This document shows positions 3,133 to 40,725 of a stretch of 64,000 nucleotides of DNA, piece after piece. Every line of letters begins with the position of its first letter. The first letter of the stretch is position 1. The stretch comes from Candidatus Latescibacterota bacterium (GTDB lineage: Bacteria; Latescibacterota; UBA2968; UBA8231): contig OZ242214.1 of NCBI GenBank assembly GCA_965206595.1, positions 5,886,675 through 5,950,674 on the forward strand, given 5' to 3'. The notes beneath the pieces were generated by a model that searched no databases, was not told the DNA's origin, and saw only the letters and a list, made by a program, of their open reading frames with translations. The translations under genes and the position numbers were made by a program.

Positions 3133-3265
3133 TGCAACAGGGCGTTGAACAATTGAAATAGGCGCCTCCATACCTGTTCACCCCGGAGATACTGTCCTTG
3201 GTGGAGCGGATCGGCGAGGGAATCGGGCGGGCACTATGCTTCCGGGGTCGCGCAGGACCTGTGGA
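3132..3265 (+). pseudogene. Fic/Doc gene 5' fragment (first ~45 codons, premature stop)
   Basis: ~85% nt identity to the 5' end of the Fic gene at 4667 and to the remnant at 9236; reading frame closes after 9 codons. Confidence 0.6.
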
Positions 3266-3299
3266 CCTGCTTCTCCTTTGCCTGACGAGTGGCAAATGA

Positions 3300-4439
3300 C
3301 GATATGAACCCCCCATCCTTCTCCGACCTCCTCGCCTGTGGCCATTTCGACAAGCAGCCCTGTGAGCATTTTTCCATGGAGAACGACCTTGATGACGGGA
3401 CCTGGGCGCGGTTCAGCGGACGCGCCAAGATCCCGGAGGCGATGGATAGGGTAGAGTGGCCCTCCGAAACCTCGGCCTGATCGACGCGCAAGACCGCATG
3501 ACCCACGCCGGGGCATGGCTTGTTGCACGAGACATTCGGACGTTCACGACCAGTGCCCACGTGTCCTGTGCCCTGTTCATGGGCACCGAGAAGGTCAGGA
3601 TTCTCGACCGGCGGAACTTCCACAGCGACATCCCGGCGATGATTGACGAGGTAGTGGCCTGGATTCTCACCAAAATCAATGTCGAATTCATCATCAGGCA
3701 CGTGAGGCGGGAGGAACGGCCGGAATTGCCCGAAGAAGCCCTTCGGGAAGCGGTGGTGAATGCCGTTGCACACCGCGACTACCGCTCGACCGCAAACGTC
3801 CGGATTTACGTCTTCAAGGATCGGATCGAAATCGTCAGTCCAGGCGGGTTGCCCGAAGGGATGGGGGAAGCGGATCTGGGCACCAAGAGCGTCCCCCGCA
3901 ATCCGCTGCTGTTCGGCATGTTGTACCGAATGGATGTGGTGGAGCAGATCGGTTCCGGCATTCGGCGCATTCGGGAGCAATGTCGAGAGCACGGGGTGGC
4001 GGAGCCGGTGATCGAGGTGTCCGAGCACTGGGTTACCACAACCTTCAGGCGCCCGGTCGCAGACGTCGGGAGCAAGTCGGGGGCAAGTGGGGACCAGGTC
4101 GACAACGCCATATCTGACAATACGTTACAATATTCGGGGAACCCTCCCGGGGATTCGACCTTACAAGTGGAGGACCAGATCGGAACCAAGCAAGCACTAA
4201 GTAGGCACCAAGTTGGAATTCTCCGTAACTCCTTGAACGAGCAGGCAATTACGGAGTTGATGGTACTGGCGGGGAAAAAAGATCGCACCAAGTTCAGGAA
4301 CCAAGTGCTCAGGCCCCTGCTGGAGGAGGGGTTGCTGGAGATGACCGTCCCCGACAAGCCCCGAAGCAGCAAGCAGAAGTACCGGGTGACGGCACGGGGC
4401 AGGGACCTGTTGGCGGAGTTGGACAGAAAGCCGGATTGA
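3300..4439 (+). pseudogene. 5'-truncated and frameshifted copy of the AlbA_2/HATPase_c_4 (RecG-C-terminal-like) gene
   Basis: ORFs 3289..3480 and 3456..4439 together align to residues ~115-488 of the full copy at 5565..7031 (…VNAVAHRDYRSTANV…VEQIGSGIRRIREQC…); N-terminal AlbA_2 domain absent; C-terminal wHTH tail differs and is AT-richer. Confidence 0.6.
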
Positions 4440-4489
4440 CCCATTCCTGCACGGTGCCGGCGAAGAGGATCAGGATGAAGTTCCAGGAG

Positions 4490-4667
4490 CTGGGGCTATG
4501 AGGCGATGCACCCGGACCGGAATACCATCACCATCGCCGGACGACCTTTGCATGGGAGCATTACCCCGCGGAGCCGAATGTCACACTTGGTTGTGGTTAT
4601 GGAAAAAGGCAAGGTCGTAGAAATCGAGCCGGATCCCGAGATGTACGGCGAGCATCCGGAGAAATAG
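4490..4667 (+). pseudogene. Remnant of a zeta-toxin gene (P-loop deleted, large internal deletion)
   Basis: Homologous to the 5' end (incl. upstream 'ggggatatgag…') and last ~80 nt of the gene at 2407..3132; 20-nt P-loop-coding deletion and ~0.5-kb internal deletion. Confidence 0.6.
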
Positions 4668-5442
4668 TGCAACAGGTTGCAGCACAATTGAACGAGGCGC
4701 CCCCATACCGGATCACCCCCGAGATCCTGTCCCTGGTGGAGCGGATCGGCGAGGGCATCGGGTGGGCGGAGGCTTCCGGCGTCGCGCAGGATCTGCGGCT
4801 GCGGCGTATCAACCGCATCCGCACGATACAGGGATCGCTGGCGATCGAGGGGAACACCCTGACCGAGGGACAGATATCAACGCTGCTGGATGGCAAACCG
4901 GTTGCCGGACCCCTGCGGGAAATCCGGGAAGCTCGCAACGCCATCAAGGCGTGCGACGTGTACGAGGCGTGGGATCCGGCAAACGAGGCCGACCTCCTTG
5001 AGGCGCACCGCATCCTGATGGCCGGCCTGCTGGACAGGCCGGGGAGTTACCGCCGCGGCGGGGTTATGGTCGGAGGACCTGGAGGGGTCCATCACGTCGG
5101 CCCGCCGCCGGCGCGGGTGCCGGAGCAGATGGGGAGGCTGCTGGAGTGGGTGGGAAGTGCCGGAGAGCATCCGCTGATTTCCAGTTCGGTCTTTCTCATT
5201 ACGAGTTCGAGTTCATCCATCCCTTCGAGGACGGCAACGGCCGCATGGGTCGGCTATGGCAGACGCTGATCCTGACGCGCTGGCGGGACCTGTTCGCTCA
5301 TCTTCCGGTGGAGAGCCTCGTTCACGCCCGTCAGAGCGCTTACTATGCCGCCATCCGCGAGAGCTCGGCCGCGGGGGAGAGCACGCCCTTCATCGTATTC
5401 ATGCTGGAAATCATCCGGCTTGCCGTTACGGAGCAGACCTGA
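4667..5442 (+). pseudogene. Fic/Doc family protein (AMPylator-type), interrupted by a frameshift near 5200
   Basis: ORF 4667..5269 (frame 2) continues as ORF 5146..5442 (frame 1), which holds the Fic motif HPFEDGNGRMGR; frameshift in a T/C-rich stretch. Confidence 0.7.
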
Positions 5443-5564: not shown

Positions 5565-7031
5565 ATGAATGAAACCCTCCTCAGCCTGATCACCCTCGGC
5601 GAAGGCTTCACAACGGAGTTCAAGCGCTCTTTCCCCTCCGACCTGGGCACCGAAATCTGCGCCTTCGCGAATTCCACGGGCGGCGTAATTCTGCTCGGCG
5701 TGACGAACGAAGGGGAGACCGTAGGCATTGGGAACCACAACAAGCTGAAATCGCAGGTCCAGTCTACCGCGCGTTCGGCGGAGCCACCGATTGCGGTCGA
5801 AGTGGAATCCGCCGGCGACGTGCTCTGCGTGACCGTGCCCGAACAGCACGGGAAGCCCTATTCCTTCGGCGGAAGGTTCTACATCCGCGAAGGGGCCAAT
5901 TCTCAGCAGATGTCCCGCGACGAAATCCGGGAGTTCTTCTACAAGGAAGGACTCATTCGCTTCGACGAGACGCCTTGCCAGCGCTTCGATCTCCAACGCG
6001 ATCTGACGCCGGAAGCGTGGTCTCGATTCGCCGGGCGGGCTCGAATTCCTGACGGCATGGAGCCGCTGACGGCGCTGGAAAACCTGCATCTTGTCGTTGA
6101 TGGAAAGATGACCCACGCCGGAGCGTGGCTGCTGGCGGACGATATCACCCGGTACAGCTTGCAGGCAGGGGTGACCTGCGCCCTGCTGCGGGGGGTGACC
6201 AAGACGCACATTCTCGATCTCAAGAACTTCACCGGCGATCTCTACTCGATCTACGAGGATTGTGTGGCCTACGCACAGGCCAAACTGAACACGGCGCTGA
6301 TGCCGCACGTTCGCGGCAGGGATGAGCGTCTGGAGCTGCCCGAGGACGCGATTCGCGAAGTATTGGTGAACGCCATCGCGCACCGGGACTATCGATCTAC
6401 CGCCAACGTGCAGATGTACGTGTTCCACGACCGGTTGGAAATCGTGACGCCGGGCGGGTTGCCCGCAGGAATGCGCGAAGAGGATCTGGGCGTCAAGAGC
6501 GTGCCGCGGAACCGGTTGCTGTTCGGGATGTTTCACCGCATGGGGATGGTGGAGCAGATCGGCAGCGGAATCAGGCGCATTCGACAGGAGTGCCGCGACT
6601 ACGGGGTGGCGGAACCGGTGATCGAGGTATCCGAGCACTGGGTGACCATGACCTTTCAAAGGCCGTCCGCACAAATCGGTGAGCAAGTCACGGCGCATGT
6701 CAGGGACCGAGTCCATGCAGGGCCAGAGTCAGGGCCAGAGTCAGGGCCAGAGTCAGGGCCAGAGTCAGGGCCAGAGTCAGGGCCAGAGTCAGGGCCAGAG
6801 TCACTGGAACTGCGCGTCCTGGCGCTGCTGATCGAAGAACCTCTTTCGAGATCCGCCATAGCTGATGGTTTGGGACACCAATCCGTGTCGGCCGGCCTCA
6901 ACAGAGTGATCCGCAACCTGGTGCGTGACAGGCGTATTGCGTACACGGTCCCGGACAAGCCGGGCAGCAGGCTTCAGAAGTACCGGATTACGCCAGCCGG
7001 GAGATCGGCGCTCGAAGAGCCAGCCAAGTGA
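5565..7031 (+). CDS. AlbA_2 (divergent AAA-4) + HATPase_c_4 + C-terminal wHTH protein (RecG C-terminal-like / Schlafen-like putative DNA-binding ATPase), 488 aa
   Basis: N-terminal …TEFKRSF…GGVILLGV… (AlbA_2-like); central …VNAIAHRDYRSTANVQMYVF…MVEQIGSGIRRIRQEC… (HATPase_c_4-like); stops 22 nt before hsdM. Confidence 0.7.
   Translation: MNETLLSLITLGEGFTTEFKRSFPSDLGTEICAFANSTGGVILLGVTNEGETVGIGNHNKLKSQVQSTARSAEPPIAVEVESAGDVLCVTVPEQHGKPYSFGGRFYIREGANSQQMSRDEIREFFYKEGLIRFDETPCQRFDLQRDLTPEAWSRFAGRARIPDGMEPLTALENLHLVVDGKMTHAGAWLLADDITRYSLQAGVTCALLRGVTKTHILDLKNFTGDLYSIYEDCVAYAQAKLNTALMPHVRGRDERLELPEDAIREVLVNAIAHRDYRSTANVQMYVFHDRLEIVTPGGLPAGMREEDLGVKSVPRNRLLFGMFHRMGMVEQIGSGIRRIRQECRDYGVAEPVIEVSEHWVTMTFQRPSAQIGEQVTAHVRDRVHAGPESGPESGPESGPESGPESGPESGPESLELRVLALLIEEPLSRSAIADGLGHQSVSAGLNRVIRNLVRDRRIAYTVPDKPGSRLQKYRITPAGRSALEEPAK
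6721..6804 (+). repeat. In-frame 12-bp tandem repeat (ggccagagtcag x7) encoding (GPES)7
   Basis: Seen directly; perfect copies, last unit ends in c; lies in the linker before the C-terminal wHTH of the 5565..7031 protein. Confidence 0.95.
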
Positions 7032-7053: not shown

Positions 7054-9169
7054 ATGTCCCAACTCGAACATATCGACGCCATCGAGAAGCGCCTCTGGGA
7101 AGCGGCGGACACGCTGCGGGCAAACTCCCCATACGCCAGCAACGAGTACTTCCTGCCGGTCATGGGCCTGGTGTTTCTGCGCCACGCCTACAGCCGCTAC
7201 CTGGCGGTCAAGGACAAAGTCGAAGCCAGCCTGCCGACCCGGGGCGGCAGGAAACGGGCGCCGACCAAGGAGGACTATTCCCGGCAGAGCGCCATCTTCC
7301 TGCGCCCCGAGGCCCAATTCGACAATCTGGTTGGCCTGCCGGACGGAGAGGACCGCGCCAAGGCCGTCATCGCGGCGATGGACTCCATCGAGGAGGATTA
7401 CCACAGCCTGCGCGGCGCCCTTCCCAAGGCCGAGTACCAGGAGCTGGACAACGACGTGCTCGGCCAGCTCCTGCGCACGCTCAACCCCGACCAGCTGAAG
7501 CAGGTCTCGGGCGACGTTTTCGGACGCATCTACGAGTATTTCCTGACCAAGTTTGCGGATTTGAAAGCCCACGACGACGGCGAGTTCTTCACCCCCGTGT
7601 CGCTGGTCTCGCTGATCGCTCATGTGCTCGACCCCGACCGCGGCACCGTGCTCGACCCGGCCTGCGGTTCCGGCGGCATGTTCGTGCAGAGCGCCCGCAC
7701 CGTGGAGGAGCACGGCAGCAGCCCTGCCGAGCGGCTTACCTTCCGCGGCCTGGAGAAGAACGCCACCACCATCCGCATCGCCCGGATGAACCTCGCCGTC
7801 CACGGCCTCGAGGGGGACATCCGGCAGGCGATCACCTACTACGAGGATCCGCATCAAATGGTGGGAAAGGCCGACTACGTGATGGCCAATCCTCCCTTCA
7901 ACGTCGACGAGATCGACGCCGACAAGGTGGAGACCGACCCGCGCCTGCCGTTCGGCCTGCCGGGAGTCAACAAGAAGGAGAAGGTCTCGAACGGCAACTA
8001 CGTCTGGATCAGCTACTTCTACAGCTACCTGAACGAGAAGGGGCGGGCCGGCTTCGTCATGTCGTCGCAGGCATCCAGCGCCGGCGGGACCGAGGCGCAG
8101 GTGCGGCGGAAGCTGATCGAGTCCGGCGACGTCGACGTGATGATCGCGGTGCGCTCCAACTTCTTCTACACCCGCACCGTGCCCTGCGAGTTGTGGTTCC
8201 TCAACCGCAACAAGCCCGGGGAGTTTCGCGACAAGGTGCTGATGATCGACGCCCGCGATGTCTATCGAAAGGTCACCCGCAAGATCTACGACTTCAGCCC
8301 CGAGCAGGAGCAGAACCTGCTGGCCATCGTCTGGCTCTACCGGGGCGAAACGGAGCGCTATCTCGATCTCGTCTCCCAGTACCTGTGGGACGTTGCCGAG
8401 AATGGAAGGGCCTGTTACGAAGGGATGAGCGTAAACGGCAGGACCTGCCGGCCGCTGCCGGAGTTCATGGAAGCCGTCGCCGCGCTCCGGGAGGACCTGT
8501 CCCCGTTCCTGAAGACCCGGCCGAGGATCGGCCCGCACGCCGAAATCTTCGCCGAGCTGGCGAAGGAGCAGAAGCAGTTCGGAGGCATCCTCAGGAGGTT
8601 CCAGGCTCGGGCCGCCAAGGCGCAGGAACAGTGGGAGCGGGCTCCCGGCACCAGCGCCGGATTGAACAAGCTGGTGGAGCGGTTCGCACCGGCTGGCTGA
8701 GAGCAGCCGCGACCTCGCCGGGCAGTCCGACCAGCTCTACAAGCTCGCCAACCGCCTGATCGAGACCTGCGAGCAGGAGGAGGACGCGAAGGCGAGCGAC
8801 GCCTGGAACGGCCGCGGTATTACCCGGGCCAGGAAAGCGGTCGACGATGCCCGCCGGCAGGCCATCGAGCAGCTCGAACAGGTGCACTACTTCCACCGGC
8901 AGGCGCGCTGGCTCACGGAGCGCTTCCCCGAGGGAGAGTTGCGCGACGTGGAAGGGCTGGTCAAGCTGGTGGACCGCGCCGAGATCGAGGCCAACGACTG
9001 GAGCCTGACTCCGGGCCGCTACGTCGGCGTCGCCCCCGAGGAGGAGGAGGAAGGGTTCGACTTCAAGGAAGCACTTCGAGAGATCCACCTTGAGCTGGAG
9101 GACCTCAACGCCGAGGCAGTGGTGCTGGCGGAGAAGATCAGAAAGAACTTCGAGGAGCTGGGGGTATGA
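7054..9169 (+). pseudogene. hsdM: Type I restriction-modification N6-adenine methyltransferase HsdM, interrupted by a 4-bp tandem duplication (GGCT)2 at 8691-8698
   Basis: MSQLEHIDAIEKRLWEAADTLR… N-terminus and NPPF motif (VMANPPFN); frame 1 stops at 8700; C-terminal ~168 codons (…DWSLTPGRYVGV…) continue open in the +1 frame from 8666 to 9169; deleting one GGCT unit restores one 704-aa ORF. Confidence 0.8.
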
Positions 9170-9235
9170 AGAAGCGAACCAATCTGCGGCCGGGGGGTTT
9201 CGGCGCGGCACACTGGCACTGCCGCCATAAGAAAC

Positions 9236-9492
9236 AGGCTGTTGCACAATTGAACGAGGCACCCCAATACCGGATCACCCCCCAGATACGGTCCCTGGTG
9301 GATCGGATCGGGGAGGGCATAGGGCGGGGCGAAGGCTTCCGGCGTTGCGCAGGACCTGCGGGTTCGGTGTATCAACCGCCCACCAGAGCGCGAACTCTTC
9401 CGCCGACCGGGAGAGCTCGGCGGAAGAGTTCGGCCTTTATCGTATTCATGCTGGAGATCAACCCGTTTGCGGTGCCGGGGGATCAGACATGA
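9236..9492 (+). pseudogene. Fic/Doc gene remnant (5' ~50 codons joined to 3' ~20 codons, internal deletion)
   Basis: ORF 9166..9492: …QAVAQLNEAPQYRITPQIRSLVDRIGEGIG… plus …FIVFMLEI… match the N- and C-termini of the Fic gene at 4667..5442. Confidence 0.6.
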
Positions 9493-9628
9493 GGGACAGC
9501 TACTGCGGGGACTTTCTCACCATCTGTCGAAACGACCTTGGAAAGAGCGCATTTACAGTTGATGGATGTGTGCGAGGGGTCATATTGATGACCGTACGCA
9601 TCCTATGGGGTCCAACGGAGTTTGATCG

Positions 9629-10774
9629 ATGAAATGGACACCTCGAACTCTTGATGAACTTGGCTACGTTAGCCGGGGCAGGTCTCGGCACAGGCCAAGG
9701 GATGCCGCCCACCTTTACGGCGGCCCTTACCCTTTCATCCAGACAGGGGATATAAAACACGCAAGTCTCTATGTAAATAGTTACTCGCAGACCTACACGG
9801 AGGCCGGACTTGCCCAGAGTCGTCTCTGGAAAGCGGGAACACTATGCATAACGATTGCCGCAAATATTGCGGACACGGCGATTCTCGCCATTGATGCCTG
9901 CTTTCCAGACAGCGTTATCGGCTTCATCCCCGACAATGAGAAAGCCGATGCCCGTTTTCTCAAATACCTGTTTGATGCGACGATTCAGAAACGAATCAAG
10001 CAGTTCACTCAAGGCGCCACGCAGGACAACCTTAGCCAAACCAAGCTCCTGTCACTCCAATTCCCCATTCCAGACGTGGCGGAACAACTCCGTATTGCCG
10101 ACCTCCTGTCAGCCTACGACGACTTGATGGAGAAGAACCGGCGCCGGATTCAGTTGCTGGAGCACGCTGCGCGACTGCTCTACAAGGAGTGGTTTGTCCA
10201 TCTTCGCTTCCCTGGAAATGAGAACGTCAAGATCAAGGACGGTGTGCCGGAGGGATGGGAGAGGAAGACGTTGGGCGATTTAGTAGAGGTGACAAAGGGA
10301 AGGAACATTACCAAAAATTCAGCTAAGGATGGCTCTGTGCCCGTTGTTGCTGGGGGCTTATCTCCAGCCTATTATCACGATACGGCCAATGCGGTTGGAC
10401 CAGCCATCACTATTAGTGCATCTGGAGCCAACGCCGGATACGTGAACCTCTACTACGAGGACATTTGGGCATCTGACTGCTCTTATATCAGTACTACATC
10501 AACGGATCGTCTGTATTACCTTTACTTACTCCTCAAGTCGAAACAGAGGGAGATCTTGGGATTCCAGAAGGGCGCAGCACAGCCTCACGTTTACCCAAAG
10601 GACTTGAAAAGGTTGCCGTTGTTGGCTCCAAAGAATATCGTCGTGAATATGTTTGAAGAATCAGTAGTGGCAGACAATTTTCATCAAAAGGTCTTGGTCG
10701 AACAAAACAAACTACTGGTGCAAGCCCGAGACCTGCTTCTGCCGCGTTTGATGAGTAGAAAGGTGGCGGTATGA
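9629..10774 (+). CDS. hsdS: Type I R-M specificity subunit HsdS (two target-recognition domains)
   Basis: 381 aa; conserved central and C-terminal HsdS helices (…LAEQLRIADLLSAYDDLMEKNRRRIQLLE…, …LVEQNKLLVQARDLLLPRLMS…); GC drops to ~50%. Confidence 0.85.
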   Translation: MKWTPRTLDELGYVSRGRSRHRPRDAAHLYGGPYPFIQTGDIKHASLYVNSYSQTYTEAGLAQSRLWKAGTLCITIAANIADTAILAIDACFPDSVIGFIPDNEKADARFLKYLFDATIQKRIKQFTQGATQDNLSQTKLLSLQFPIPDVAEQLRIADLLSAYDDLMEKNRRRIQLLEHAARLLYKEWFVHLRFPGNENVKIKDGVPEGWERKTLGDLVEVTKGRNITKNSAKDGSVPVVAGGLSPAYYHDTANAVGPAITISASGANAGYVNLYYEDIWASDCSYISTTSTDRLYYLYLLLKSKQREILGFQKGAAQPHVYPKDLKRLPLLAPKNIVVNMFEESVVADNFHQKVLVEQNKLLVQARDLLLPRLMSRKVAV

Positions 10775-11544
10775 GCGTATCCTACCCAACCAAACTTCGC
10801 CTAGCTTATCGAAGCGGGGACAGATGCGCCCTTCCCGGTTGTGGGCAGCAATTATCGCCAACGGGCGAAGGCGGCATTCCTAGCAATGTGGGAGAGTACG
10901 CACATATCGCCGGAGAACATAGCGGTAGAGTACGGGGCCATCGGTCCGCTCGCTACGATCCAAATATGACTGAAGAGGAGAGGAACGGCTACCACAACCT
11001 GATTTATTTATGTGCGAACTGCCACAGAAGAATAGACGCTATTCCACAGGGAGAACCAGACTATCCTGTGGAACGTCTCCAGGAGATCAAAGCCGAGCAT
11101 GAGCTAAGGGTTAGCGAGGCAATGGCTGAGGCATTCGCAGATGTCGGCTTCCCTGAACTAGAAGAAGCCACTCTATGGATCATGCAACTTATTCCTCAAC
11201 AACCGGATAGTGACTTCACGGTAATTGCACCCGAAGACAAACTAAAGAAGAACGAATTAGGAAACGCCTCTCGAAATATCATCACAATGGGCCTCAGTGT
11301 TTCGCGGGAGGTTCGAGCATTTATTGAAAATACAGCACAGGAAGATCATAATTTTCCAGAACGTCTGAAGTCAGGATTTCTTGAGGAGTACTACCGACTG
11401 AAGAAAGAGGGGCATTCAGGGGATGATCTTTTCGACTTGATGTGTCGATTTGCACAAAGAGGCTTCACAGAGGAAACAAAGAGGTCTGCTGGGAAGGCAG
11501 TGATGATTTACCTATTTGAGACTTGTGAGGTGTTTGAGAAATGA
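10771..11544 (+). CDS. HNH-nuclease effector protein (N-terminal HNH, C-terminal alpha-helical domain), 257 aa
   Basis: HNH motif C-x2-C … H … N … C-x2-CH (…CALPGCGQ…EYAHIAGEH…NLIYLCANCHRRID…); start overlaps the hsdS stop (ATGA); AT-rich. Confidence 0.7.
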   Translation: MSVSYPTKLRLAYRSGDRCALPGCGQQLSPTGEGGIPSNVGEYAHIAGEHSGRVRGHRSARYDPNMTEEERNGYHNLIYLCANCHRRIDAIPQGEPDYPVERLQEIKAEHELRVSEAMAEAFADVGFPELEEATLWIMQLIPQQPDSDFTVIAPEDKLKKNELGNASRNIITMGLSVSREVRAFIENTAQEDHNFPERLKSGFLEEYYRLKKEGHSGDDLFDLMCRFAQRGFTEETKRSAGKAVMIYLFETCEVFEK

Positions 11545-11768
11545 TTCTTCCGTCGAAGCACATTTCCCAAGACCAATCACTGATCGGCGTCGGTGCTATT
11601 CTACTAAAGAAGATTGGTAGGCCCCAGACCGTAACCAGCCTTTGGGAGACCGTCCGCGAGGAAGATGCGATAGGTACGTTTGAACGGTTTGTACTAGCGC
11701 TTGACATGCTTCACATCGCCGGAGCTGTAGCCTTGGAAAATGGCCTGATCGTAAAGGTGAAAAAATGA
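11541..11768 (+). CDS. Small helical protein (75 aa), candidate 'middle component'
   Basis: ATGA overlaps with both neighbours; no recognisable motif. Confidence 0.5.
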   Translation: MILPSKHISQDQSLIGVGAILLKKIGRPQTVTSLWETVREEDAIGTFERFVLALDMLHIAGAVALENGLIVKVKK

Positions 11769-13525
11769 TCCATAGTATTACCGCTAACCACTCCTCATTC
11801 AATCCCGTCGAATTCACGTCGGGCTTGAACGTGATCTTAGCAGATCGCACTGAAACTTCGACACAAAAAGACACACGAAATGGTCTTGGTAAGTCTACAC
11901 TAATTGAAATTATCCACTTCTGCCTAGGCTCCAACGTTCAAAAAGGTCAAGGGCTTTCAATAGAGCCACTACGGGATTGGGAGTTCACCTTGGAGATTAC
12001 ACTCGCGGGTAACCGTGTGAAAGTAACTCGCGCCGTTGCTAGATCTAATATTTTTGTCATAGATGGCACGACGACTGGTTGGATTGATCAACCTGATTGT
12101 GAGGATATGTTTGGAAAGAAACCAATCAGATTAAAATTGGATCAATGGAGGGCACTCTTGGGGAGGGCACTATTTGGGTTATCGCCATCTGACGAACCCC
12201 ATAGTTACACGCCGTCTTTTCGGAGTCTGCTTTCTTATTTTATAAGATTGGGGAATGACGCTTATGATGATCCCTTCCGAAATACGCGACAGCAGCAACC
12301 GTGGAACGTTCAGCTCCATGTCGGATTTCTTCTTGGCTTGAACTGGGAGAACGCGGCGAGATGGCAGGAGCTTAAGGACCAGGAGAAAGGCGTGAAGGCA
12401 TTTAGTCAAGCAATCAAGTCTGGTGTCACGGAATATGCACGGGGTTCGGTTGGCGAATTGGAGGCTGAGCGTGTTCAGTTGGAAAGTCAATTAGAGCAGG
12501 AGTCCCATGCACTACAAAATTTCAAGGTTCACCCTCAATATGAGTCTATTCAGCAAGAAGCGGACCGGGCCACAGCGATCATTCACAACTTAACTAATGA
12601 TAACGTCGTTGGTCGCAGACGATTGGCACGCTATAGGGAATCTGTTGCAGCGGAAAAGCCCCCATCGGATACCGCAATCGATGAACTGTATAAGGAGGCA
12701 GGCGTTGTTTTTTTTGAAGCGACTCGTCGCACTCTAACGGAAGCGAAGGAATTTCATTCTAAGATCGTGGAGAACAGGCGAGCTTTCCTTGAGATGGAAA
12801 TCGTACGCTTGGAACGACAAATTGAGAATAGAAACAATGACATCAGAAAATGGACCGACACCAGGGCTACTTCGCTGGAAATCCTAAGAACACATGGTGC
12901 TCTACAAGAGCTGACCAAGCTACAAGAGCGCCATGCAGGTACGCGAGAAAGACTGGAAAGTACACGTACGCGAATTTCAGAAATTAGGAATTTGACGGCG
13001 CAGAAGCGTAAGGTTCTAGTTGAGAAGACCGAACTAGCTCAGATTACCGAGCGGGATCACGAGCAACGCCGAGACGTTTGGAACACTCCAGTACGTTTCT
13101 TCAACGACAATTCTCAAGCTTTATACCAAACACCTGGACACTTGGTGATTGACATCGGTAGAGCCGGTTTCAAATACGATGTCGAGATAAACAGGAGCGG
13201 CAGTGAAGGCGTCAATAAGATGAAAATATTTTGCTTCGATTTGATGCTCGTGCAGCTCACGCCGATACGGAACAATCCAATTGATTTTCTGATTCATGAC
13301 AGTGGTCTTTACGATGGCGTTGACTCTAGGCAGCGGGCCCTTGCGCTTGAGCGCGCATGTGAAGTGTCCGAGGCAACCGATACACAATATATTTGCACAC
13401 TTAATTCTGATATGGTTCCGCGAGATGACTTCAGTCCCGGATTTTACTTCGATAAATATGTCAGACTGACGCTTACTGACAAGAATCCCTCCGGCAGTCT
13501 TCTTGGCTTTCAGTTCGAGATGTAA
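11765..13525 (+). CDS. ABC/SMC-like ATPase with a central coiled coil (586 aa)
   Basis: N-terminal Walker A NGLGKSTLIEII; ~200-aa coiled-coil insert; C-terminal signature-like SGSEG, Walker B IDFLIHDSG and D-loop LYDGVD, as in Rad50/SMC/ABC-3C-type ATPases. Confidence 0.75.
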   Translation: MIHSITANHSSFNPVEFTSGLNVILADRTETSTQKDTRNGLGKSTLIEIIHFCLGSNVQKGQGLSIEPLRDWEFTLEITLAGNRVKVTRAVARSNIFVIDGTTTGWIDQPDCEDMFGKKPIRLKLDQWRALLGRALFGLSPSDEPHSYTPSFRSLLSYFIRLGNDAYDDPFRNTRQQQPWNVQLHVGFLLGLNWENAARWQELKDQEKGVKAFSQAIKSGVTEYARGSVGELEAERVQLESQLEQESHALQNFKVHPQYESIQQEADRATAIIHNLTNDNVVGRRRLARYRESVAAEKPPSDTAIDELYKEAGVVFFEATRRTLTEAKEFHSKIVENRRAFLEMEIVRLERQIENRNNDIRKWTDTRATSLEILRTHGALQELTKLQERHAGTRERLESTRTRISEIRNLTAQKRKVLVEKTELAQITERDHEQRRDVWNTPVRFFNDNSQALYQTPGHLVIDIGRAGFKYDVEINRSGSEGVNKMKIFCFDLMLVQLTPIRNNPIDFLIHDSGLYDGVDSRQRALALERACEVSEATDTQYICTLNSDMVPRDDFSPGFYFDKYVRLTLTDKNPSGSLLGFQFEM

Positions 13526-13665
13526 AGTGAAGGGTAGATTTACAGTCTCTGGTCTCATAGACGCAATGGTCAATGGAAAGGGTATCTCCAGATTGACCTT
13601 TTCCCATCTGAAGATCAGGAGGCCAGGGTCAACCTTGATGAAATGAGAAAACAAGGAGGTGACCC

Positions 13666-14562
13666 GTGAACATACGCGAGTACCACCAACTCCAGGCGGA
13701 ACGGACCACCCTGGATGATTTGCTCGAGCGGCTACCCCCGGAAAATGTGATCGAACGAACCGGTCTGGAATTCCGGAAGAAGGAGGTGGATGAAGCACTC
13801 GCTTCGCGTCCGGAGCCCTCCAGAAACCCCACCCGGGTGTGTCTGACCTTTCGCGGAAAACCCATCGCAGGATCCCATGGGATTTTCGCGGATTTCGGGG
13901 CGGAGGCCGTTCAGGCATTTACGAATATGGTTGCCACCATGGGCGCCAGCCAACATGCACCGCTCGGGTCGCGTGGTGCGATACCCAACCGTGAGGAGTA
14001 CCGCCTGCTGATTACCGGCACGGCATCAGGATCGTTCGGTTTCGAGCTGGAAGAGGCCAGGTATGACCTCTTTCCCGAATCTTCTCCGGTCGAGTCCGCA
14101 ATTGTCCAAACAATGACAATTCTTGAGGCTACGGTTGGAGCAGACGAAGTATTGGCGAATGCCGTTTCCGAAGCCGACCCGCGAGCGCTTGAGGCGCTGC
14201 GTGGGTTCTTGGAAACGATGGCGGATCAAGACGCGGTGTGCACGGTTGAATTCAACGACGATGTTTTCCGGTTTGTGGACGTTGGCCAGGTCCGACGAAG
14301 CGAAAGCCGCCTGAGTCCGGAGAACATTCATGAAGAAGTGCGGGAAATCACAGGGCGCATTATTGGGGTATTGCCCTTCCGTCGTACGTTCGAATTTCTG
14401 GAAGATGAAACAGGAGAATTGATCTCGGGCCGGATCGATCGCGCTATCGAAGATGCTGCGGAAATTGATCAGTTTCTCAACAGATCCTTGAAGATCCGCG
14501 TGGATTCCAAACAGGTAGGAACAGCAAGGCCTCGTTACGTCCTTTTGGAATACGACATATAA
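13666..14562 (+). CDS. Hypothetical acidic protein (298 aa), no recognisable domain
   Basis: GTG start 8 nt after AGGAGG; lies between the ATPase gene and hsdR; intermediate GC (~57%). Confidence 0.55.
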   Translation: MNIREYHQLQAERTTLDDLLERLPPENVIERTGLEFRKKEVDEALASRPEPSRNPTRVCLTFRGKPIAGSHGIFADFGAEAVQAFTNMVATMGASQHAPLGSRGAIPNREEYRLLITGTASGSFGFELEEARYDLFPESSPVESAIVQTMTILEATVGADEVLANAVSEADPRALEALRGFLETMADQDAVCTVEFNDDVFRFVDVGQVRRSESRLSPENIHEEVREITGRIIGVLPFRRTFEFLEDETGELISGRIDRAIEDAAEIDQFLNRSLKIRVDSKQVGTARPRYVLLEYDI

Positions 14563-14598: not shown

Positions 14599-17500
14599 AT
14601 GACCCCGACTCCCTATACCGAGGACAGCCTCGTCCAGCAGACCACCGCCAACTACCTGGAGCAACGCCTGGGCTGGGAGTCAATCTACGCCTACAACCAC
14701 GAGGACTCCGGTCCCGGCAGCCTGCTCGGCCGCGCCTCCGGCCGCGAGGTAGTGCTGGAGCGGACGCTTCGCGCGAACCTCGCGGAGCTGAATCCGGGCC
14801 TGCCCGCATCCGCATACGACGACGCGGTGCGGCAGATCACCGCTGTCTCCGCCTCCCAGACCCTCGTCGCCGCCAACCGTGAGAAGTACAAGCTGGTACG
14901 GGACGGCCTGCAGGTGGTCTTCACCAACGACCGGGGCAAGCGGAAGACACGCCTCCTGCGGCTGTTCGACTTCGCCGAGCCGGCCAACAATCATTTCCTG
15001 TGCGTGCGCGAGCTGTGGGTGCAGGGGGATCTCTACCGCCGCCGCGCCGACATCGTCGGCTTCGTCAACGGCCTGCCGTTGCTGTTCATCGAGTGCAAGA
15101 ACATCCACCGCGACCTCAAGGCCGCCTTCGAGGGGAACTACTCCGACTACCGCGACACCATTCCCCACCTCTTCCACCACAACGCAGTGGTGATGTTCGC
15201 CAACGGCGAGAAGGCGAACATCGGCTCCATCACCAGCCGCTGGGAACACTTCTACGAGTGGAAGCGCCTGGCCGAGGAGGAGCCGGGTGTGGTCGACATG
15301 GAGACGCTGCTCAAGGGGGTCTGCGACAAGCGCAACTTCATGGACTTGGTGGAGAACTTCATCCTCTTCGACGATTCGACGGGAGAGACGCGGAAGATTC
15401 TGGCCCGCAACCACCAGTTCCTCGGCGTGAACCGGGCCGTCGAGGCGGTGCGCGACCGCGAGAAGCGGCAGGGCCGGCTCGGCGTCTTCTGGCATACCCA
15501 GGGAGCGGGCAAGAGCTACTCGATGGTGATGTTCACCCGCAAGGTTCATCGCAAGCTGGGGGGCAACTTCACCTTCCTGGTGCTGACCGACCGGGACGAT
15601 CTCGACCGCCAGATCTACAAGACCTTCGCCGGCTGCGGCGTGGTGGATCACGATCGCGACCCCTGCCGGGCCGCGGACGGAAAGCACCTCGGCCGGTTGA
15701 TGGCCGAGCACAAGTCCCACGTCTTCTCGCTGATCCAGAAGTTCAACCTGGACCCGGGCGCCGGCTACACGATGCGCGGGGACATCATAGTCATCAGCGA
15801 CGAGGCGCACCGCACCCAGTACGGCACCCTGGCGCTCAACATGCGCAACGCCCTGCCAAACGCCGGCTACATCGGCTTTACGGGCACGCCGCTGTTCACC
15901 GAAGATGAGATCACCCGTCGCGTCTTCGGCGAGTACGTCTCGACCTACGACTTCCAGCGCGCGGTGGAGGACGAGGCCACGGTGCCGCTCTACTACGACG
16001 CCCGCGGCGACAAGCTGGGCGTTGCCATCGGCGACCTGAACGAGCGCATCGCCGACAAGCTGGATGAGTTCGACATCGAGGACGTCGACGTGGAGCAGCG
16101 CCTGGAGCAAGACCTGAAGCGGGACTATCACGTCGTCACCGCGGGCAGGCGTCTCGACCAGGTAGCGCGGGACTTCGTGCAGCACTATTCCGCGGCCTGG
16201 GAGACCGGAAAGGCGATCCTGGTCTGTATCGACAAGATCACCTGCGTGCGCATGCATGGGCTGATCGAGCGCTATTGGAACGAGCGCATCGAGGAACTGG
16301 AGGAGGAGAAGAAGTGGACTGACGACGAGCAGGAGGAGATTTATCTCCAGCGGCAGATCGAGTGGACGCGGGAGACCCGCATGGCCGTGGTGGTGAGCGA
16401 GGATCAGGGGGAGGTGGCGAAGTTCCGCAAGTGGGAGCTGGACATCACCCCGCACCGGAAGCTCATCAAGAATGGTATGGAACTGCCCGAGTCGATGCGC
16501 CGCAAGCCGCAGTTCCGCCGCAAGCAGCGGATGGCGGTCGACGAAGCCTTCAAGGCGGAGGAGCATCCGTTTCGCATCGCCATCGTTTGCGCCATGTGGC
16601 TGACCGGTTTCGACGTGCCGAGCCTTTCCACGCTCTACCTCGACAAACCGCTCAAAGCCCACACCCTTATGCAGGCCATCGCCCGCGCAAACCGGGTCAA
16701 CGAGGGCAAGAACAACGGCCTGATCGTCGACTACTGCGGCATCCTCAGGCACCTGCGCAAGGCCCTGGCGACCTTTGCCGGTACCGCCGACGGAGGAGGA
16801 GGTGGTGGCGGTCCCGGTCAAGAGATTGATCCTGTGCAACCGGGAAAGGAGCTGCTCGCTGGCCTCGCCGAAGCGATTGCCATGGTGCGCGCTTTCCTCG
16901 AAGAACGCCGTGCGCCGCTCGACGATGTCATCCATAAGACCGGCTTCGAGCGCAACGCCGCCATCGTGGCCTGCAAGGAAGCGGCCAACGAGAACGACGA
17001 GACCCGCAAGCGCTTCGAAGTGATCTGCCGCGAGGTTTTCAGGAAGTTCAAGGCCTGCATCAACCTGCGGGGCGTCAACGCCTACCGGGGGGATCGCGCC
17101 GCCATCGACGCCGTCTACCGGAGCCTCCAGCAGGACCGCGAGCAGGCCGACATCACCGACATCATCCGCGCCCTGCACGGAGTGGTGGACGAGGCCATCG
17201 ACCTGCGGCAGGAACGCACTAGGGATAGTCATCGGGATCCGTTGGACATCAGCCGGATCGACTTCGACCGGCTCAAGCGGGAGTTCGAGGGCAGCCCCGC
17301 CAAGCGGACGACAGTGCAGTCCCTCAAGGAGGCAGTGGAGGAGAGGCTCCGGCGCCTTTTGGCCCGCAACCCGCTACGGACCGACTTCCAAAGACATTTC
17401 GAGGAGATAGTCAGAGAGTACAACCGGGAGAAGGAGCGGGTGACCATCGAGCATACCTTCGAGGCATTGCTCAACCTCGTGAAGGAGCTGGATGAGGAGG

Positions 17501-17853
17501 AAAAGCGGGCCTTGAACATGGGATTGAACGAGGAATCGCTGGCGATCTACGATCTTCTGCAGAAACCGGATCTCGGGGCGCGTGACATCAACCGCATCAA
17601 AATGGTCTCCATTGAGCTGCTGCGAACGTTGAAAGAGGGGAAGCTCCGCGTCGAACAATGGCGCGAAAAGGAGGCGACCCGGGCCGCGGTCAAGGGAGAG
17701 ATCCAGGACTTCCTGTGGAGCGACGTAACCGGGCTGCCGCCCGACAGCTACACGGATGACGATGTGCAGGTGAGGGTGGACGGCGTTTTCGGCCACGTAT
17801 ACCGGGCCTACCCTACGGTGCCATCACCTTTCTACATGAGCGACGCCGCGTGA
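14599..17853 (+). CDS. hsdR: Type I R-M restriction subunit HsdR (helicase/nuclease), ~1084 aa
   Basis: N-terminal …EDSLVQQTTANYLEQRLGWES…; DEAH box (IVISDEAHRTQYG); helicase motifs; start placed at the internal Met. Confidence 0.9.
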   Translation: MTPTPYTEDSLVQQTTANYLEQRLGWESIYAYNHEDSGPGSLLGRASGREVVLERTLRANLAELNPGLPASAYDDAVRQITAVSASQTLVAANREKYKLVRDGLQVVFTNDRGKRKTRLLRLFDFAEPANNHFLCVRELWVQGDLYRRRADIVGFVNGLPLLFIECKNIHRDLKAAFEGNYSDYRDTIPHLFHHNAVVMFANGEKANIGSITSRWEHFYEWKRLAEEEPGVVDMETLLKGVCDKRNFMDLVENFILFDDSTGETRKILARNHQFLGVNRAVEAVRDREKRQGRLGVFWHTQGAGKSYSMVMFTRKVHRKLGGNFTFLVLTDRDDLDRQIYKTFAGCGVVDHDRDPCRAADGKHLGRLMAEHKSHVFSLIQKFNLDPGAGYTMRGDIIVISDEAHRTQYGTLALNMRNALPNAGYIGFTGTPLFTEDEITRRVFGEYVSTYDFQRAVEDEATVPLYYDARGDKLGVAIGDLNERIADKLDEFDIEDVDVEQRLEQDLKRDYHVVTAGRRLDQVARDFVQHYSAAWETGKAILVCIDKITCVRMHGLIERYWNERIEELEEEKKWTDDEQEEIYLQRQIEWTRETRMAVVVSEDQGEVAKFRKWELDITPHRKLIKNGMELPESMRRKPQFRRKQRMAVDEAFKAEEHPFRIAIVCAMWLTGFDVPSLSTLYLDKPLKAHTLMQAIARANRVNEGKNNGLIVDYCGILRHLRKALATFAGTADGGGGGGGPGQEIDPVQPGKELLAGLAEAIAMVRAFLEERRAPLDDVIHKTGFERNAAIVACKEAANENDETRKRFEVICREVFRKFKACINLRGVNAYRGDRAAIDAVYRSLQQDREQADITDIIRALHGVVDEAIDLRQERTRDSHRDPLDISRIDFDRLKREFEGSPAKRTTVQSLKEAVEERLRRLLARNPLRTDFQRHFEEIVREYNREKERVTIEHTFEALLNLVKELDEEEKRALNMGLNEESLAIYDLLQKPDLGARDINRIKMVSIELLRTLKEGKLRVEQWREKEATRAAVKGEIQDFLWSDVTGLPPDSYTDDDVQVRVDGVFGHVYRAYPTVPSPFYMSDAA

Positions 17854-18031
17854 ACTTCCGCGGCCCGCAACAGGCCCTGGCCGGGGTTGATTTTTCGCGG
17901 CTCGCGGCCAAAGTTCCCCACATGGCCGCGGCGCGGACTGGCCGGCCGATACCTGCCCAGCAGCGCCGGGCTCAAACCGCGGACCGGGAAGCGCCCGTAG
18001 CTCGTTCCGCCATAGCGGCAGGGGATTCGAA

Positions 18032-18540: not shown

Positions 18541-18730
18541 AGTGAACGACAATTCCAGGGCGCTGTGCGAACGGGCGACCCAGCTCATTCCCGGCGGCGT
18601 CAACAGCCCGGTGGGCGCTTTCAAGGCGGAGGGAAAGTGAACGACAACTCCAGGGCGCTGTACGCACGCGCGACGAAGTTCATCCCGGGCGGCGTCAACA
18701 GCCCGGTGCGGGCCTTCAAGGCGGTCGGCG
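18541..18730 (+). repeat. ~95-bp imperfect tandem duplication covering the hemL start region
   Basis: Unit 18541-18635 vs 18636-18730, seen directly. Confidence 0.85.
18542..18640 (+). other. 32-codon upstream ORF formed by a tandem duplicate of the hemL 5' end; its stop overlaps the hemL GTG start (GTGA)
   Basis: GTG 18542 … VNDNSRALCERATQLIPGGVNSPVGAFKAEGK* ; ~85% nt identity to 18637..18730. Confidence 0.4.
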
Positions 18731-38652: not shown

Positions 38653-39622
38653 GCTCACCTACACGGAAGCGGCCCGCGAAGGCCTGAGCGAGGAGATGGC
38701 CGCCGACCCGACGGTCTTCGTGGTCGGCCAGGGGATCGGTCCTCGGGGCGGCAACTTCAACACCACCACCAGCCTGCACGAGATCTACGGCGACATGCGG
38801 CTGCGCGACACGGGGATCACCGAGCGCGGGTTCACCGGCCTGTGCACGGGGGCCGCGATGACCGGTTCGCGTCCGGTCGTCGACTACATGTTTCACGACT
38901 TCGCCCTCGACGCCCTCGGCGAGATCGTCAACCAGATCCCCAAGATCCAGTACATGAGCAGTGGCCGTCTGCGTATGCCGATCGTGCTGCGCGGCTGCAT
39001 CGGCGTCGGCGGGGCCGCGGCGACCCATCACTCCGGCAGCTACTATCCGCTGTTCGCGCACCTGCCCGGCTTCCGGGTCTGCCTGCCGAGCACGCCGTAC
39101 GACGTCAAGGGGCTGCTTAAGACGTCGATCCGCAGCGACGATCCGGTAATCTTCATGGAGCACAAGTCGCTGCTCAACACCCGCGGTCCGGTTCCCGAAG
39201 AGGAGTACACCATCCCCTTCGGCGAGGCGTCGATCCGCCGCCGGGGGGAACACGCCACCGTCGTCGCCCTGACCACCATGGTGGGGCGCACCCTCGAGGT
39301 CGCCGCCGGGCTCGAGGCCGAGGGGATCTCCCTCGAGGTCATCGATCCCCGCACCGTCGCCCCGCTCGACATCGACGCCGTGCTCGAGTCGGTGCACAAG
39401 ACCGGACGTCTGCTCGTGGTCGACGAGACCTGGGCCCCTTGCGGCATAGGGGCGGAGATCGCCGCACAGGTGATCGACCGCGGCTTCGACGATCTCGACG
39501 CGCCGATCCGGCGCCTGAATGGAGCCCACACCAACATCCCCTACAGCGCCCCGCTCGAGGCGGCCGTCGTGCCGCAGAAGGGGGACATCCGCGACGCTGT
39601 CCGGGAGCTGGTCGCCGAGTAG
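38645..39622 (+). CDS. Dehydrogenase E1 beta subunit (transketolase-like)
   Basis: Typical E1-beta sequence; ATG overlaps the alpha stop. Confidence 0.85.
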   Translation: MRELTYTEAAREGLSEEMAADPTVFVVGQGIGPRGGNFNTTTSLHEIYGDMRLRDTGITERGFTGLCTGAAMTGSRPVVDYMFHDFALDALGEIVNQIPKIQYMSSGRLRMPIVLRGCIGVGGAAATHHSGSYYPLFAHLPGFRVCLPSTPYDVKGLLKTSIRSDDPVIFMEHKSLLNTRGPVPEEEYTIPFGEASIRRRGEHATVVALTTMVGRTLEVAAGLEAEGISLEVIDPRTVAPLDIDAVLESVHKTGRLLVVDETWAPCGIGAEIAAQVIDRGFDDLDAPIRRLNGAHTNIPYSAPLEAAVVPQKGDIRDAVRELVAE

Positions 39623-39630
39623 GAGCAGCA

Positions 39631-40725
39631 GTGGCGGTCGACGTCGTCATGCCCCGCCTCGGGTGGACCATGGAGGAGGGCACCCTGGTGGAGTGGACGA
39701 GGAAGGACGGCGACGCGATCGCCGCGGGCGAGGTGATCATGCTGGTCGAGAGCGACAAGGCGGTCACCGAGGTAGAGTCGTTCGATGACGGCATCCTGCG
39801 CATTCCCCCTGACTCGCCCCCCCCGGGAACCACGGTGCCGATCGGTACCGTGCTCGCCTTCATCCTGCAGCCGGGCGAGGAGATGCCGGAGTCTCCGACC
39901 GGGAGCGCGCCTGAAGCCACGGCCTCGGAGTTGCCCGGACCGGTTCCGGCGGCTGCACCGGAAACCGCGCTGGCCGTCTCTCCGGTCCCGGTCCCGGTTC
40001 CGGCGCAGGCACAGGCTCCCCCGCCCCGCGGGCGCCGCGGGTCGGCGATTTCCCCGCGCGCCCGTAGGGTTGCGGTCGAGCTTGGTATCGACTGGCAGCG
40101 CCTGCGCGGCAGCGGCCGCAGCGGCCGTATTGTCGAACGCGACGTGCGCGCCGCCGCGAAAACCGCATCCGCGGTACCTGCCGCAGCGGCCGCCTCTCAG
40201 GCCGCAGAGGTGGATATGACGGCGTTCGTCAGCCACTGCGACCGGCTGGCGGAGCTGATGAAGCGGACCCCTGTCGTGCCGGGAATGTTCGACTTGGTTC
40301 TGCGCTCTGTTGGACAGGCCTTGGCAGAGGTGCCGTCCCTGTCGGGGGCGGACTCCGGTGTCCGCGTTCAGCGCGACGACTCCGCAGCGGTTCTCAAGAG
40401 CTTTCAGTCGCTCTCCGTTCTCGATATCGGCCGGGCCATGGCTGGGGACGAAACCGCTGGCCGCGGGGCAGTCGCGGCTTCGACTCCGTTCAACGTCATT
40501 GCCCTCGAGGGTGTCGATGCGCTGGCTCCCGGGCTGCCCCCCGGCGCCGTTGGCGTGCTGGGACTGGGTTCGGTGCGGGAGAGAGAGGGCGCCGCCGGGA
40601 CGAGGAAGTCCCTGAACCTGCAGTTGACCTACGACCTCTCGGCGGTGACGGACGCCGAGGCGCAGCAGTTCATGGGGGCGTTGCGGTCGTACCTCGAAGA
40701 CCCCTTCACCTGGCTCTCCTGGTGA
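39631..40725 (+). CDS. E2-like lipoyl protein (lipoyl domain plus E3-binding domain) with a degenerate acyltransferase domain
   Basis: Lipoyl-lysine motif ESDKA and E3-binding motif present; catalytic DHRxxDG replaced by DLSAVTD. Confidence 0.65.
   Translation: MAVDVVMPRLGWTMEEGTLVEWTRKDGDAIAAGEVIMLVESDKAVTEVESFDDGILRIPPDSPPPGTTVPIGTVLAFILQPGEEMPESPTGSAPEATASELPGPVPAAAPETALAVSPVPVPVPAQAQAPPPRGRRGSAISPRARRVAVELGIDWQRLRGSGRSGRIVERDVRAAAKTASAVPAAAAASQAAEVDMTAFVSHCDRLAELMKRTPVVPGMFDLVLRSVGQALAEVPSLSGADSGVRVQRDDSAAVLKSFQSLSVLDIGRAMAGDETAGRGAVAASTPFNVIALEGVDALAPGLPPGAVGVLGLGSVREREGAAGTRKSLNLQLTYDLSAVTDAEAQQFMGALRSYLEDPFTWLSW

Follow-up and report, generated by a model that had tools for sequence, protein, structure and literature searches.

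The subject of this report is FAM, the label used here for a 298-amino-acid (aa) protein and for the family to which it belongs, whose gene lies in a 64,000-nucleotide stretch of a Candidatus Latescibacterota genome (contig OZ242214.1; the whole stretch is hereafter called the window). The gene stands in a type I restriction-modification (R-M) operon, between the ABC ATPase gene of an ABC-3C cassette and hsdR and in the same orientation as both, as an initial annotation made from the sequence alone had described. The other basic properties given in that annotation were also recovered. The open reading frame (ORF) starts with GTG, 6 nt after a Shine-Dalgarno sequence of its own (AAGGAGG, noted earlier as AGGAGG), and encodes an acidic protein with an isoelectric point (pI) of 4.73 (53 Asp and Glu residues versus 34 Lys and Arg); its GC content, 0.553, is intermediate between those of the ABC-3C genes (0.47-0.50) and of hsdR (0.63). 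FAM is a real gene and not a chance ORF, because it has 928 homologues in a large protein collection (E<=1e-3; typically 55-65% identical across phyla, range 40-96%) and 1,537 representatives of 50%-identity clusters, because the ratio of non-synonymous to synonymous substitution rates (dN/dS) among strain variants is 0.09-0.33, and because AlphaFold2 (AF2) gives a confident model. The word orphan, under which the protein had been filed, does not suit so large a family. Our main finding is that the window copy is very probably the widowed half of a two-gene cassette, the other half of which, a gene of the DUF6932 family, is reduced in the window to a stub.

The stub lies directly upstream of FAM. 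Window positions 13541-13663 match positions 152-192 of the 193-position DUF6932 profile (E=7e-17), so that the GS...DxD...D catalytic region is missing, and the terminal TGA overlaps the GTG of FAM as it does in intact pairs. No intact DUF6932 gene is present immediately 5' of FAM in the window.

Such a gene is the rule elsewhere. A DUF6932 (PF22014) gene of about 190 codons was found immediately 5' of FAM in the four initial contexts, and pairing was scored in 80 species-level genome loci (76 informative), 39 viral-contig (IMG/VR) loci and metagenome loci retrieved with DUF6932 as the seed (78 informative). In nearly all of the genome loci DUF6932 lies directly 5' of FAM on the same strand, mostly with an overlap of 4 bp; at the informative ones 62 copies are intact, a frameshift or stop splits 10, 3 are partial, and one locus has none. 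It adjoins FAM at every viral-contig locus (intact in 38 of the 39), and FAM lies directly 3' of it at 78 of 78 informative metagenome loci. DUF6932 and FAM form one near-obligate, horizontally mobile two-gene cassette. Two proteins with both parts in a single ORF, P0071 and P0059, were considered as Rosetta-stone fusions and rejected, as they look like frameshift products that merge the overlapping ORFs: the DUF6932 part of P0071 leaves the family consensus just past ...RRNGQW, and P0059 has an internal deletion. One Dehalococcoidia locus (L087, 8001-10114) carries two DUF6932-FAM units in tandem; DUF6932 is disrupted in the first, and the second covers only positions 65-190 of the DUF6932 profile and 1-221 of the FAM profile.

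The origin of the stub can be read in sister strains. Four of them (L010, L090, L092 and L095) are 93-95% identical to the window at the nucleotide level from position 13541 rightwards; homology begins exactly there, 15 nt past the stop codon of the ABC-3C ATPase gene, and the collinear part comprises the remnant, FAM, hsdR, msrA, hemL and a DEAD helicase gene. Between about 9.2 and 13.5 kb these strains are unrelated to the window, and hsdM, further left, is shared again. In L010, L090, L091 and L092 a complete DUF6932 gene overlaps FAM by 4 bp, with hsdR 3' of the pair in L010, L090 and L092 (L091 ends within an unannotated gene directly downstream). The cargo 5' of the full pair in these four consists of IS66 and a methyltransferase fragment, of DUF7002, of TIR/ORC-like genes or of a SIR2-like gene, and L095 has a DUF6932 remnant larger than that of the window, beside IS66, with a frameshifted FAM. 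Closely related strains thus hold different cargo between hsdM and the DUF6932-FAM-hsdR block, which makes this slot a hypervariable cargo site.

One swap, which covers hsdS and the ABC-3C cassette (about 9182-13540), ended inside DUF6932 and removed about 150 of its codons. The ABC-3C cassette and an identical junction, ...GGGTAGATT joined to TACAGTCTCTGG..., are found in L093 and L094, where FAM is 94% identical to that of the window; apart from the window, five independent contigs, each of a different metagenome sample, show the junction. That two lineages, since diverged by about 5%, share it exactly points to one genuine event rather than to mis-assembly.

At a finer scale, the cargoes of the slot are ABC-3C; SIR2_2 with a 254-aa protein of unknown function; DUF7002 with the same 254-aa protein; TIR_2/ORC-CDC6-like genes with a methyltransferase; and IS66. 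The specificity domains of hsdS are swapped together with the cargo. In L090 the hsdS product (3232-5388) is 718 aa long and has an additional, adenylosuccinate synthetase-like Pfam match (Adenylsucc_synt), which is unusual for a specificity subunit.

Table 1. Features around the FAM gene, in window coordinates
Feature	Positions	Strand	Remarks
Schlafen AlbA_2 + HATPase_c_4 + Fic-like_C gene	5565-7031	+	just 5' of hsdM
hsdM	7054-9169	+	+1 frameshift near 8692 relative to L090 and L092
hsdS	9629-10774	+	two target-recognition domains; lies in the swapped, strain-variable segment (~9182-13540)
ABC-3C cassette (PADLOC PDC-M68)	10771-13525	+	occupies the place of the DUF6932 5' part; GC 0.47-0.50
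HNH+CTD10 effector of ABC-3C	10771-11544	+	PADLOC PDC-M68
MC6 middle component of ABC-3C	11541-11768	+	PADLOC PDC-M68
DUF2326 ABC ATPase of ABC-3C	11765-13525	+	PADLOC PDC-M68B, 6.7e-215
Junction, ABC-3C end / DUF6932 remnant	13526-13540	+	breakpoint identical in window/L001 and L093/L094
DUF6932 3' remnant	13541-13669	+	last 43 codons, YSLWSHRRNGQWKGYLQIDL...GGDP*; in-frame stop just 5'
FAM Shine-Dalgarno AAGGAGG	13653-13659	+	inside the DUF6932 remnant; conserved across all strain variants
FAM gene	13666-14562	+	intact, 298 aa, usual downstream partner of DUF6932; coordinates exactly as in the initial annotation
hsdR	14599-17853	+	TIGR00348, 8e-139; ATG 36 nt 3' of FAM
Terminator-like hairpin	17873-17888		3' of hsdR
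Tandem duplication	18541-18724		between msrA and hemL; 95 nt, 1.9 copies, 86% identical

The missing partner is likely a nucleotidyltransferase (NTase), judging from its motifs and its predicted structure. The family motif, ...QW.DGSF-(12)-P.DIDVVTF...VDAYF, corresponds to the hG[GS]/DxD/D pattern of the Pol-beta NTase superfamily, with S79, D94 and D96 invariant and D132 conserved to at least 90%. The AF2 model (predicted local distance difference test score, pLDDT, 89.6) has the matching order helix, strand-GS, helix, strand-DxD, strand-D. In the PDB its best Foldseek match is a putative NTase (2rff), with CdnC and the CCA-adding enzyme lower in the list, all of them weak. Relatives of DUF6932 also match PDC-M63A, a PADLOC candidate, at 5e-14; PDC-M63 originates from a guilt-by-embedding screen (bioRxiv 10.1101/2024.01.29.577857).

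FAM itself has escaped the reference libraries. The protein had no match in Pfam, NCBIfam or PADLOC (E<=0.1), its family profile gave only noise against PDB sequences, and Pfam scanned at E<=10 over 94 diverse members returned no recurrent family and neither a DUF6575 nor a HEPN match; on this last result, the family lies outside Pfam coverage. The initial remark that no motif was recognisable is thus right for the libraries. The family has the hallmark motifs LTFRGKP, TGTAxGSFGFELEE and GVLPxRRTFEF, every invariant column of which is present in the window protein (E=4.6e-151 against the FAM profile). The 150 best-scoring cluster representatives are of a single architecture and about 300 aa long, except for fragments and a few N-terminally extended members. 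Species-level genome matches number 218 and come from many bacterial phyla as well as from Methanomicrobia and Methanothrix. Among viral protein families FAM matches phrog_18731 (function unknown; E=2.9e-62 over residues 1-293), while tblastn found no match in 50,697 phage records and only 4 in plasmids. Among the 94 diverse members the conserved residues are mainly G, F and P, together with R37, S123, E129 and R173, and they include no constellation of catalytic type; alignments of 87 or 94 members have no conserved His and no Rx4-6H motif. From its conservation pattern, FAM looks non-catalytic.

Structure prediction and a Foldseek search had both been proposed in the initial annotation. The model is confident (pLDDT 89, predicted template modelling score 0.78). 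Residues 3-46 form a helical hairpin, which is followed by an alpha/beta middle domain that includes the TGTAxGSFGFELEE hairpin and by a C-terminal barrel (about residues 220-298) resembling the oligonucleotide/oligosaccharide-binding (OB) fold, with five strands and a helix between strands 3 and 4. Against the PDB only the barrel finds matches, all of them OB folds (LysRS N-terminal domain, Rim1 SSB, Stn1/Ten1, Teb1 and eIF5A), and no solved structure matches the fold as a whole. Against BFVD there are three significant whole-protein matches: A0A8S5QA00, annotated 'DUF6575 domain-containing' (E=1e-12), Q6NE06 of Leptospira phage LE1 (E=3e-9), these two over about 280-320 columns, and a Myoviridae protein. 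DUF6575 is listed among the domains of experimentally selected E. coli defence systems (PMC9519451). We treat the DUF6575 connection as a lead, as the DUF6575 region of A0A8S5QA00 could not be mapped onto the alignment.

We take Q6NE06 to be LE1-0037, since no other ORF in the examined part of the LE1 record (L216, BX571876) is 381 aa long. LE1-0037 has a ...KGSFGFSVELGKEE... motif that resembles the GSFGFELEE of FAM (GSFGF..E), and its sequence has no significant similarity to FAM (hhalign probability 17%). It is the second gene of a tight pair (38735-40413, minus strand), 2 nt after LE1-0038 (176 aa). A remote NTase identity for LE1-0038 was rejected, its match to the DUF6932 profile being insignificant and the NTase motif absent; it is presumably of PD-(D/E)xK/DUF4365 type, with a nuclease-like look. 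The upstream effector may thus differ among FAM-like proteins.

Outside the window lineage, the surroundings of the pair vary widely. Genes of the hsd type lie within 8 kb at 24 of the 80 genome loci (56 are without them), within 4 kb at 31 of 80 metagenome loci and at none of the 39 viral-contig loci. A census of nearest neighbours gave R-M domains as the sole recurrent theme (N6_Mtase 6, Methylase_S 6, HsdM_N 4, HSDR_N 3), the others being unrelated housekeeping genes. Within R-M operons the pair is placed between hsdM and hsdS, before hsdM or before hsdR, and elsewhere it lies far from any R-M gene; on a plasmid-borne element of P. aeruginosa it lies at the border of a phage-like element, with an integrase two genes away. 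FAM has no Hsd domains and no constant position relative to any hsd gene. The initial annotation was thus correct that it is unrelated to the R-M machinery, within which it is horizontally acquired cargo, and its implied tie to hsdR does not extend to other genomes. Such a context is typical of a small mobile cassette, toxin-antitoxin or abortive-infection-like, that often lodges in R-M operons; HEPN-MNT modules and the embedded PrrC are reported precedents. An anti-defence role, also proposed initially, finds nothing in favour of DNA mimicry: FAM matches no ArdA/Ocr-like mimic in Pfam, in PADLOC or by fold in the PDB and BFVD.

The remainder of the operon bears on whether FAM can be expressed and on the state of the host R-M system. 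The ORF finder placed the hsdR start at a TTG (14569), and the start called in an identical contig is the ATG at 14599. FAM and hsdR are on the same strand, with a 36-nt gap to this ATG, and the stretch from hsdS to the end of hsdR showed no terminator-like site. Co-transcription with hsdR, suspected from the start, is thus plausible; FAM is probably carried on an hsdS-ABC-3C-FAM-hsdR transcript. Compared with the 704-aa HsdM of L090 and L092, residues 1-546 of the window protein are encoded in one frame and 547-704 in the next, with the break between the end of the N6_Mtase domain and the remainder. L093, from the other ABC-3C-bearing lineage, has the extra base at the same position, so this frameshift is probably real and inherited, and because of it the R-M system of the window lineage may be defective. 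L094 additionally has a split hsdR. Relatives of the Schlafen AlbA_2/HATPase_c_4 gene adjoin hsdM in the sister strains and at L006, an unrelated Spirochaetia locus, so the gene may encode a regulator or sensor that recurs with R-M systems. The duplication between msrA and hemL reads by eye as a HemL-type N-terminus and is also seen, as cross-matches, in the sister strains. An Rfam scan of the whole window gave no match, and full-text literature searches returned no papers for DUF6932 or PDC-M68.

Loss of the partner has not been followed by loss of FAM. The protein is full length in both widowed lineages, the window and L093, and keeps 103 and 101, respectively, of the 106 positions that are at least 90% conserved in the family, compared with 101-103 in paired copies. 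The two widowed copies differ by 20.5 synonymous and 21.5 non-synonymous changes (dN/dS 0.33), and non-synonymous changes are far below the neutral expectation (binomial p=3e-4). Since their count is below the neutral level and above that of partnered copies, selection on the widowed FAM is relaxed but present.

The two genes also seem to decay unequally in other species. Loci matched by FAM in GTDB genomes were compared with loci matched by DUF6932 in JGI metagenome contigs. Of 76 loci with a full-length FAM, 14 lack DUF6932 or have it truncated or broken by a frameshift or stop, the lesions lying at different positions, whereas beside a full-length DUF6932 the longer FAM is damaged at 2 of 62 (Fisher p=0.006), an asymmetry that spans two collections and may be inflated by assembly errors, yet 7 of the 10 split DUF6932 genes come from Illumina assemblies. 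The comparison is suggestive of DUF6932 being lost more readily than FAM across species.

We propose the following explanation, which we hold with moderate confidence as a whole. The cassette is a horizontally mobile unit of two genes, a DUF6932 gene of about 190 codons with an NTase signature followed by one for an acidic FAM of about 300 aa, and the ancestor of the lineage carried it directly 5' of hsdR. The segment swap replaced hsdS and the cargo and brought in ABC-3C; with its right junction inside DUF6932, the predicted catalytic residues were among the codons lost. Because the 43-codon stub retains the ribosome-binding site of FAM, the protein can still be made. Direct observation covers the gene, its family, the pairing, the remnant, the breakpoint and the intactness of FAM, from which the NTase nature of DUF6932, the choice of the costly half, co-transcription and the present role of the widowed copy are deduced. 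FAM would neutralise or regulate a costly NTase effector, in an antitoxin-like manner and possibly also as a sensor, and could persist alone, with no functional tie to ABC-3C or HsdR. That DUF6932 is repeatedly lost while FAM stays, in the window as elsewhere, gives a non-enzymatic neutraliser or regulator somewhat better than an even chance, and agrees with one of the roles first offered, that of an immunity or regulatory factor. What the window holds is a remnant, not a working system.

Besides the two-collection design of the decay comparison, several observations weigh against this explanation. The NTase assignment of DUF6932 draws on a motif and on weak fold matches (best Foldseek E=0.025, for 2rff), and profile searches of DUF6932 against the PDB and Pfam gave no sequence link. 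Acidic antitoxins facing basic toxins are common in toxin-antitoxin pairs, and DUF6932 and FAM are both acidic (median pI 5.2 and 5.0) with no charge complementarity. The OB-like barrel is acidic as well, which weakens any idea of nucleic-acid binding by FAM. Paired copies of FAM have a dN/dS of 0.09-0.18, below the 0.33 of the widowed ones (Fisher p about 0.01-0.03), and the widowed FAM may be a slowly decaying relic; part of the divergence between the window and L093 could also predate the truncation, through recombination between strains. In addition, one native-host test in E. coli of the related candidate PDC-M63AB showed no defence against phages (PMC12409345).

The raised dN/dS in the widowed lineages fits a two-subunit defence system, not toxic at rest, in which FAM senses infection and activates the NTase, with the widowed FAM a non-functional relic that has not yet decayed. 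The strong enrichment of the pair in type I R-M operons and prophage-like elements suits such a system, as do the BFVD fold matches to phage proteins, one of them annotated with a domain of an experimentally selected E. coli defence system. We regard it as unlikely, although the least so of the alternatives: purifying selection is still detectable after widowhood and the family-conserved residues are almost all kept, and the NTase is inactivated at a higher rate, as if it were costly even at rest. It largely overlaps with the neutraliser/regulator explanation, from which it differs mainly in basal toxicity. The polarity could also be the reverse, with DUF6932 as an antitoxin that silences a toxic FAM by nucleotidylation, for example at Ser123 of GSFGF, as in type VII HEPN-MNT modules, which reportedly occur within type I R-M contexts. 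The gene order, a small NTase first and a larger partner second in overlapping ORFs, is that of HEPN-MNT modules, and FAM does have a highly conserved hydroxyl residue within a hallmark motif. This reading is improbable: FAM is intact without the NTase in two sub-lineages of the window lineage that have since diverged, and in about 14 other species with a disrupted or missing DUF6932, although an unneutralised toxin should be counter-selected. A HEPN identity for FAM is ruled out by its alpha/beta and OB-like fold and by the lack of a conserved His and of Rx4-6H.

In line with the initial annotation, FAM could have been recruited as a fourth component of the ABC-3C module, or else as a regulator or anti-restriction factor acting on HsdR. 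FAM does adjoin both in the same orientation without a terminator-like site intervening, and two diverged strain lineages have retained this arrangement, with dN/dS below 1. Against this, ABC-3C genes adjoin FAM only in the window strain lineage (the window, L001, L002, L093 and L094) and are absent from all 80 genome, 80 metagenome and 39 viral-contig loci of the family, so that the co-occurrence analysis suggested earlier finds DUF6932, and not ABC-3C, to be the near-constant companion in about 200 other loci. Moreover, the junction is a truncation scar in another gene and not a designed operon joint, the pair elsewhere occupies varied positions or has no R-M neighbours, neither Pfam nor PADLOC relates FAM to a known anti-restriction family, and hsdM is frameshifted in the lineage, whose R-M may be defective. 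We reject FAM as a fourth ABC-3C component, as the association does not recur, and consider this whole class of explanations highly improbable. A bolder reading is that DUF6932 and FAM constitute an undescribed toxin-antitoxin-like or abortive-infection module, very widespread in bacteria, methanogenic archaea and prophage-like elements, that the fold class of FAM is new and shared with phage proteins that pair with other effectors, among them the DUF6575-annotated one with its link to a validated E. coli defence system, and that the widowed FAM is kept for a stand-alone role, for example immunity against incoming NTase modules or infection sensing for neighbouring defence genes; as a whole we find it quite doubtful, less probable than the sensor-effector system but more so than the reversed polarity.

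These results link a Pfam-less family of about 1,500 clusters at 50% identity to a putative NTase family known only as a DUF, as one module, and make DUF6932-FAM a concrete candidate for a new NTase-based toxin-antitoxin or defence system. The strain series is a natural experiment, in which the same slot holds SIR2-like, DUF7002, TIR/ORC-like or ABC-3C cargo, and a single swap that truncated the NTase gene and spared its partner, together with recurrent NTase loss elsewhere, predicts which half is costly and which protective. It further illustrates how cassette exchange in R-M cargo slots creates orphan genes that can be mistaken for extra parts of a neighbouring system.

Among known systems, the closest parallels are AbiEi/AbiEii and MenA/MenT, which like DUF6932-FAM are small two-gene operons on mobile DNA, and in which one partner bears a Pol-beta-type NTase signature, as DUF6932 appears to. 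The other partner of AbiE and MenAT is a non-enzymatic neutraliser, and FAM may by analogy be read in the same way: an effector that is often inactivated beside a partner that is kept is the behaviour expected of a toxin with its antitoxin. The gene order is reversed, however, with the putative NTase first in DUF6932-FAM; DUF6932 is much smaller than AbiEii/MenT (DUF1814) and has no sequence match to those families, and FAM lacks an AbiEi-like winged-helix domain, having instead its helical hairpin, alpha/beta domain and OB-like barrel. HEPN-MNT (type VII) modules are likewise embedded in type I R-M operons (PMC4621449). They share with DUF6932-FAM a minimal NTase gene followed by an overlapping partner, frequent location between hsd genes and wide transfer between bacteria and archaea, but FAM differs from the HEPN partner in fold and motif, and a partner that survives loss of the NTase speaks for the opposite polarity. 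The LE1 phage pair also has a protein of FAM fold as the second member of a tight pair, but its upstream partner has no NTase motif. PDC-M63AB is, like DUF6932-FAM, a two-gene candidate embedded in R-M/BREX-type loci or prophages. Because DUF6932 matches PDC-M63A whereas FAM matches no PADLOC model, PDC-M63B included, profile matches place DUF6932-FAM as a sibling cassette of PDC-M63AB with a different second gene. DUF6932-FAM is an uncharacterised variant among the NTase-based two-gene systems, with a partner protein of a new kind.

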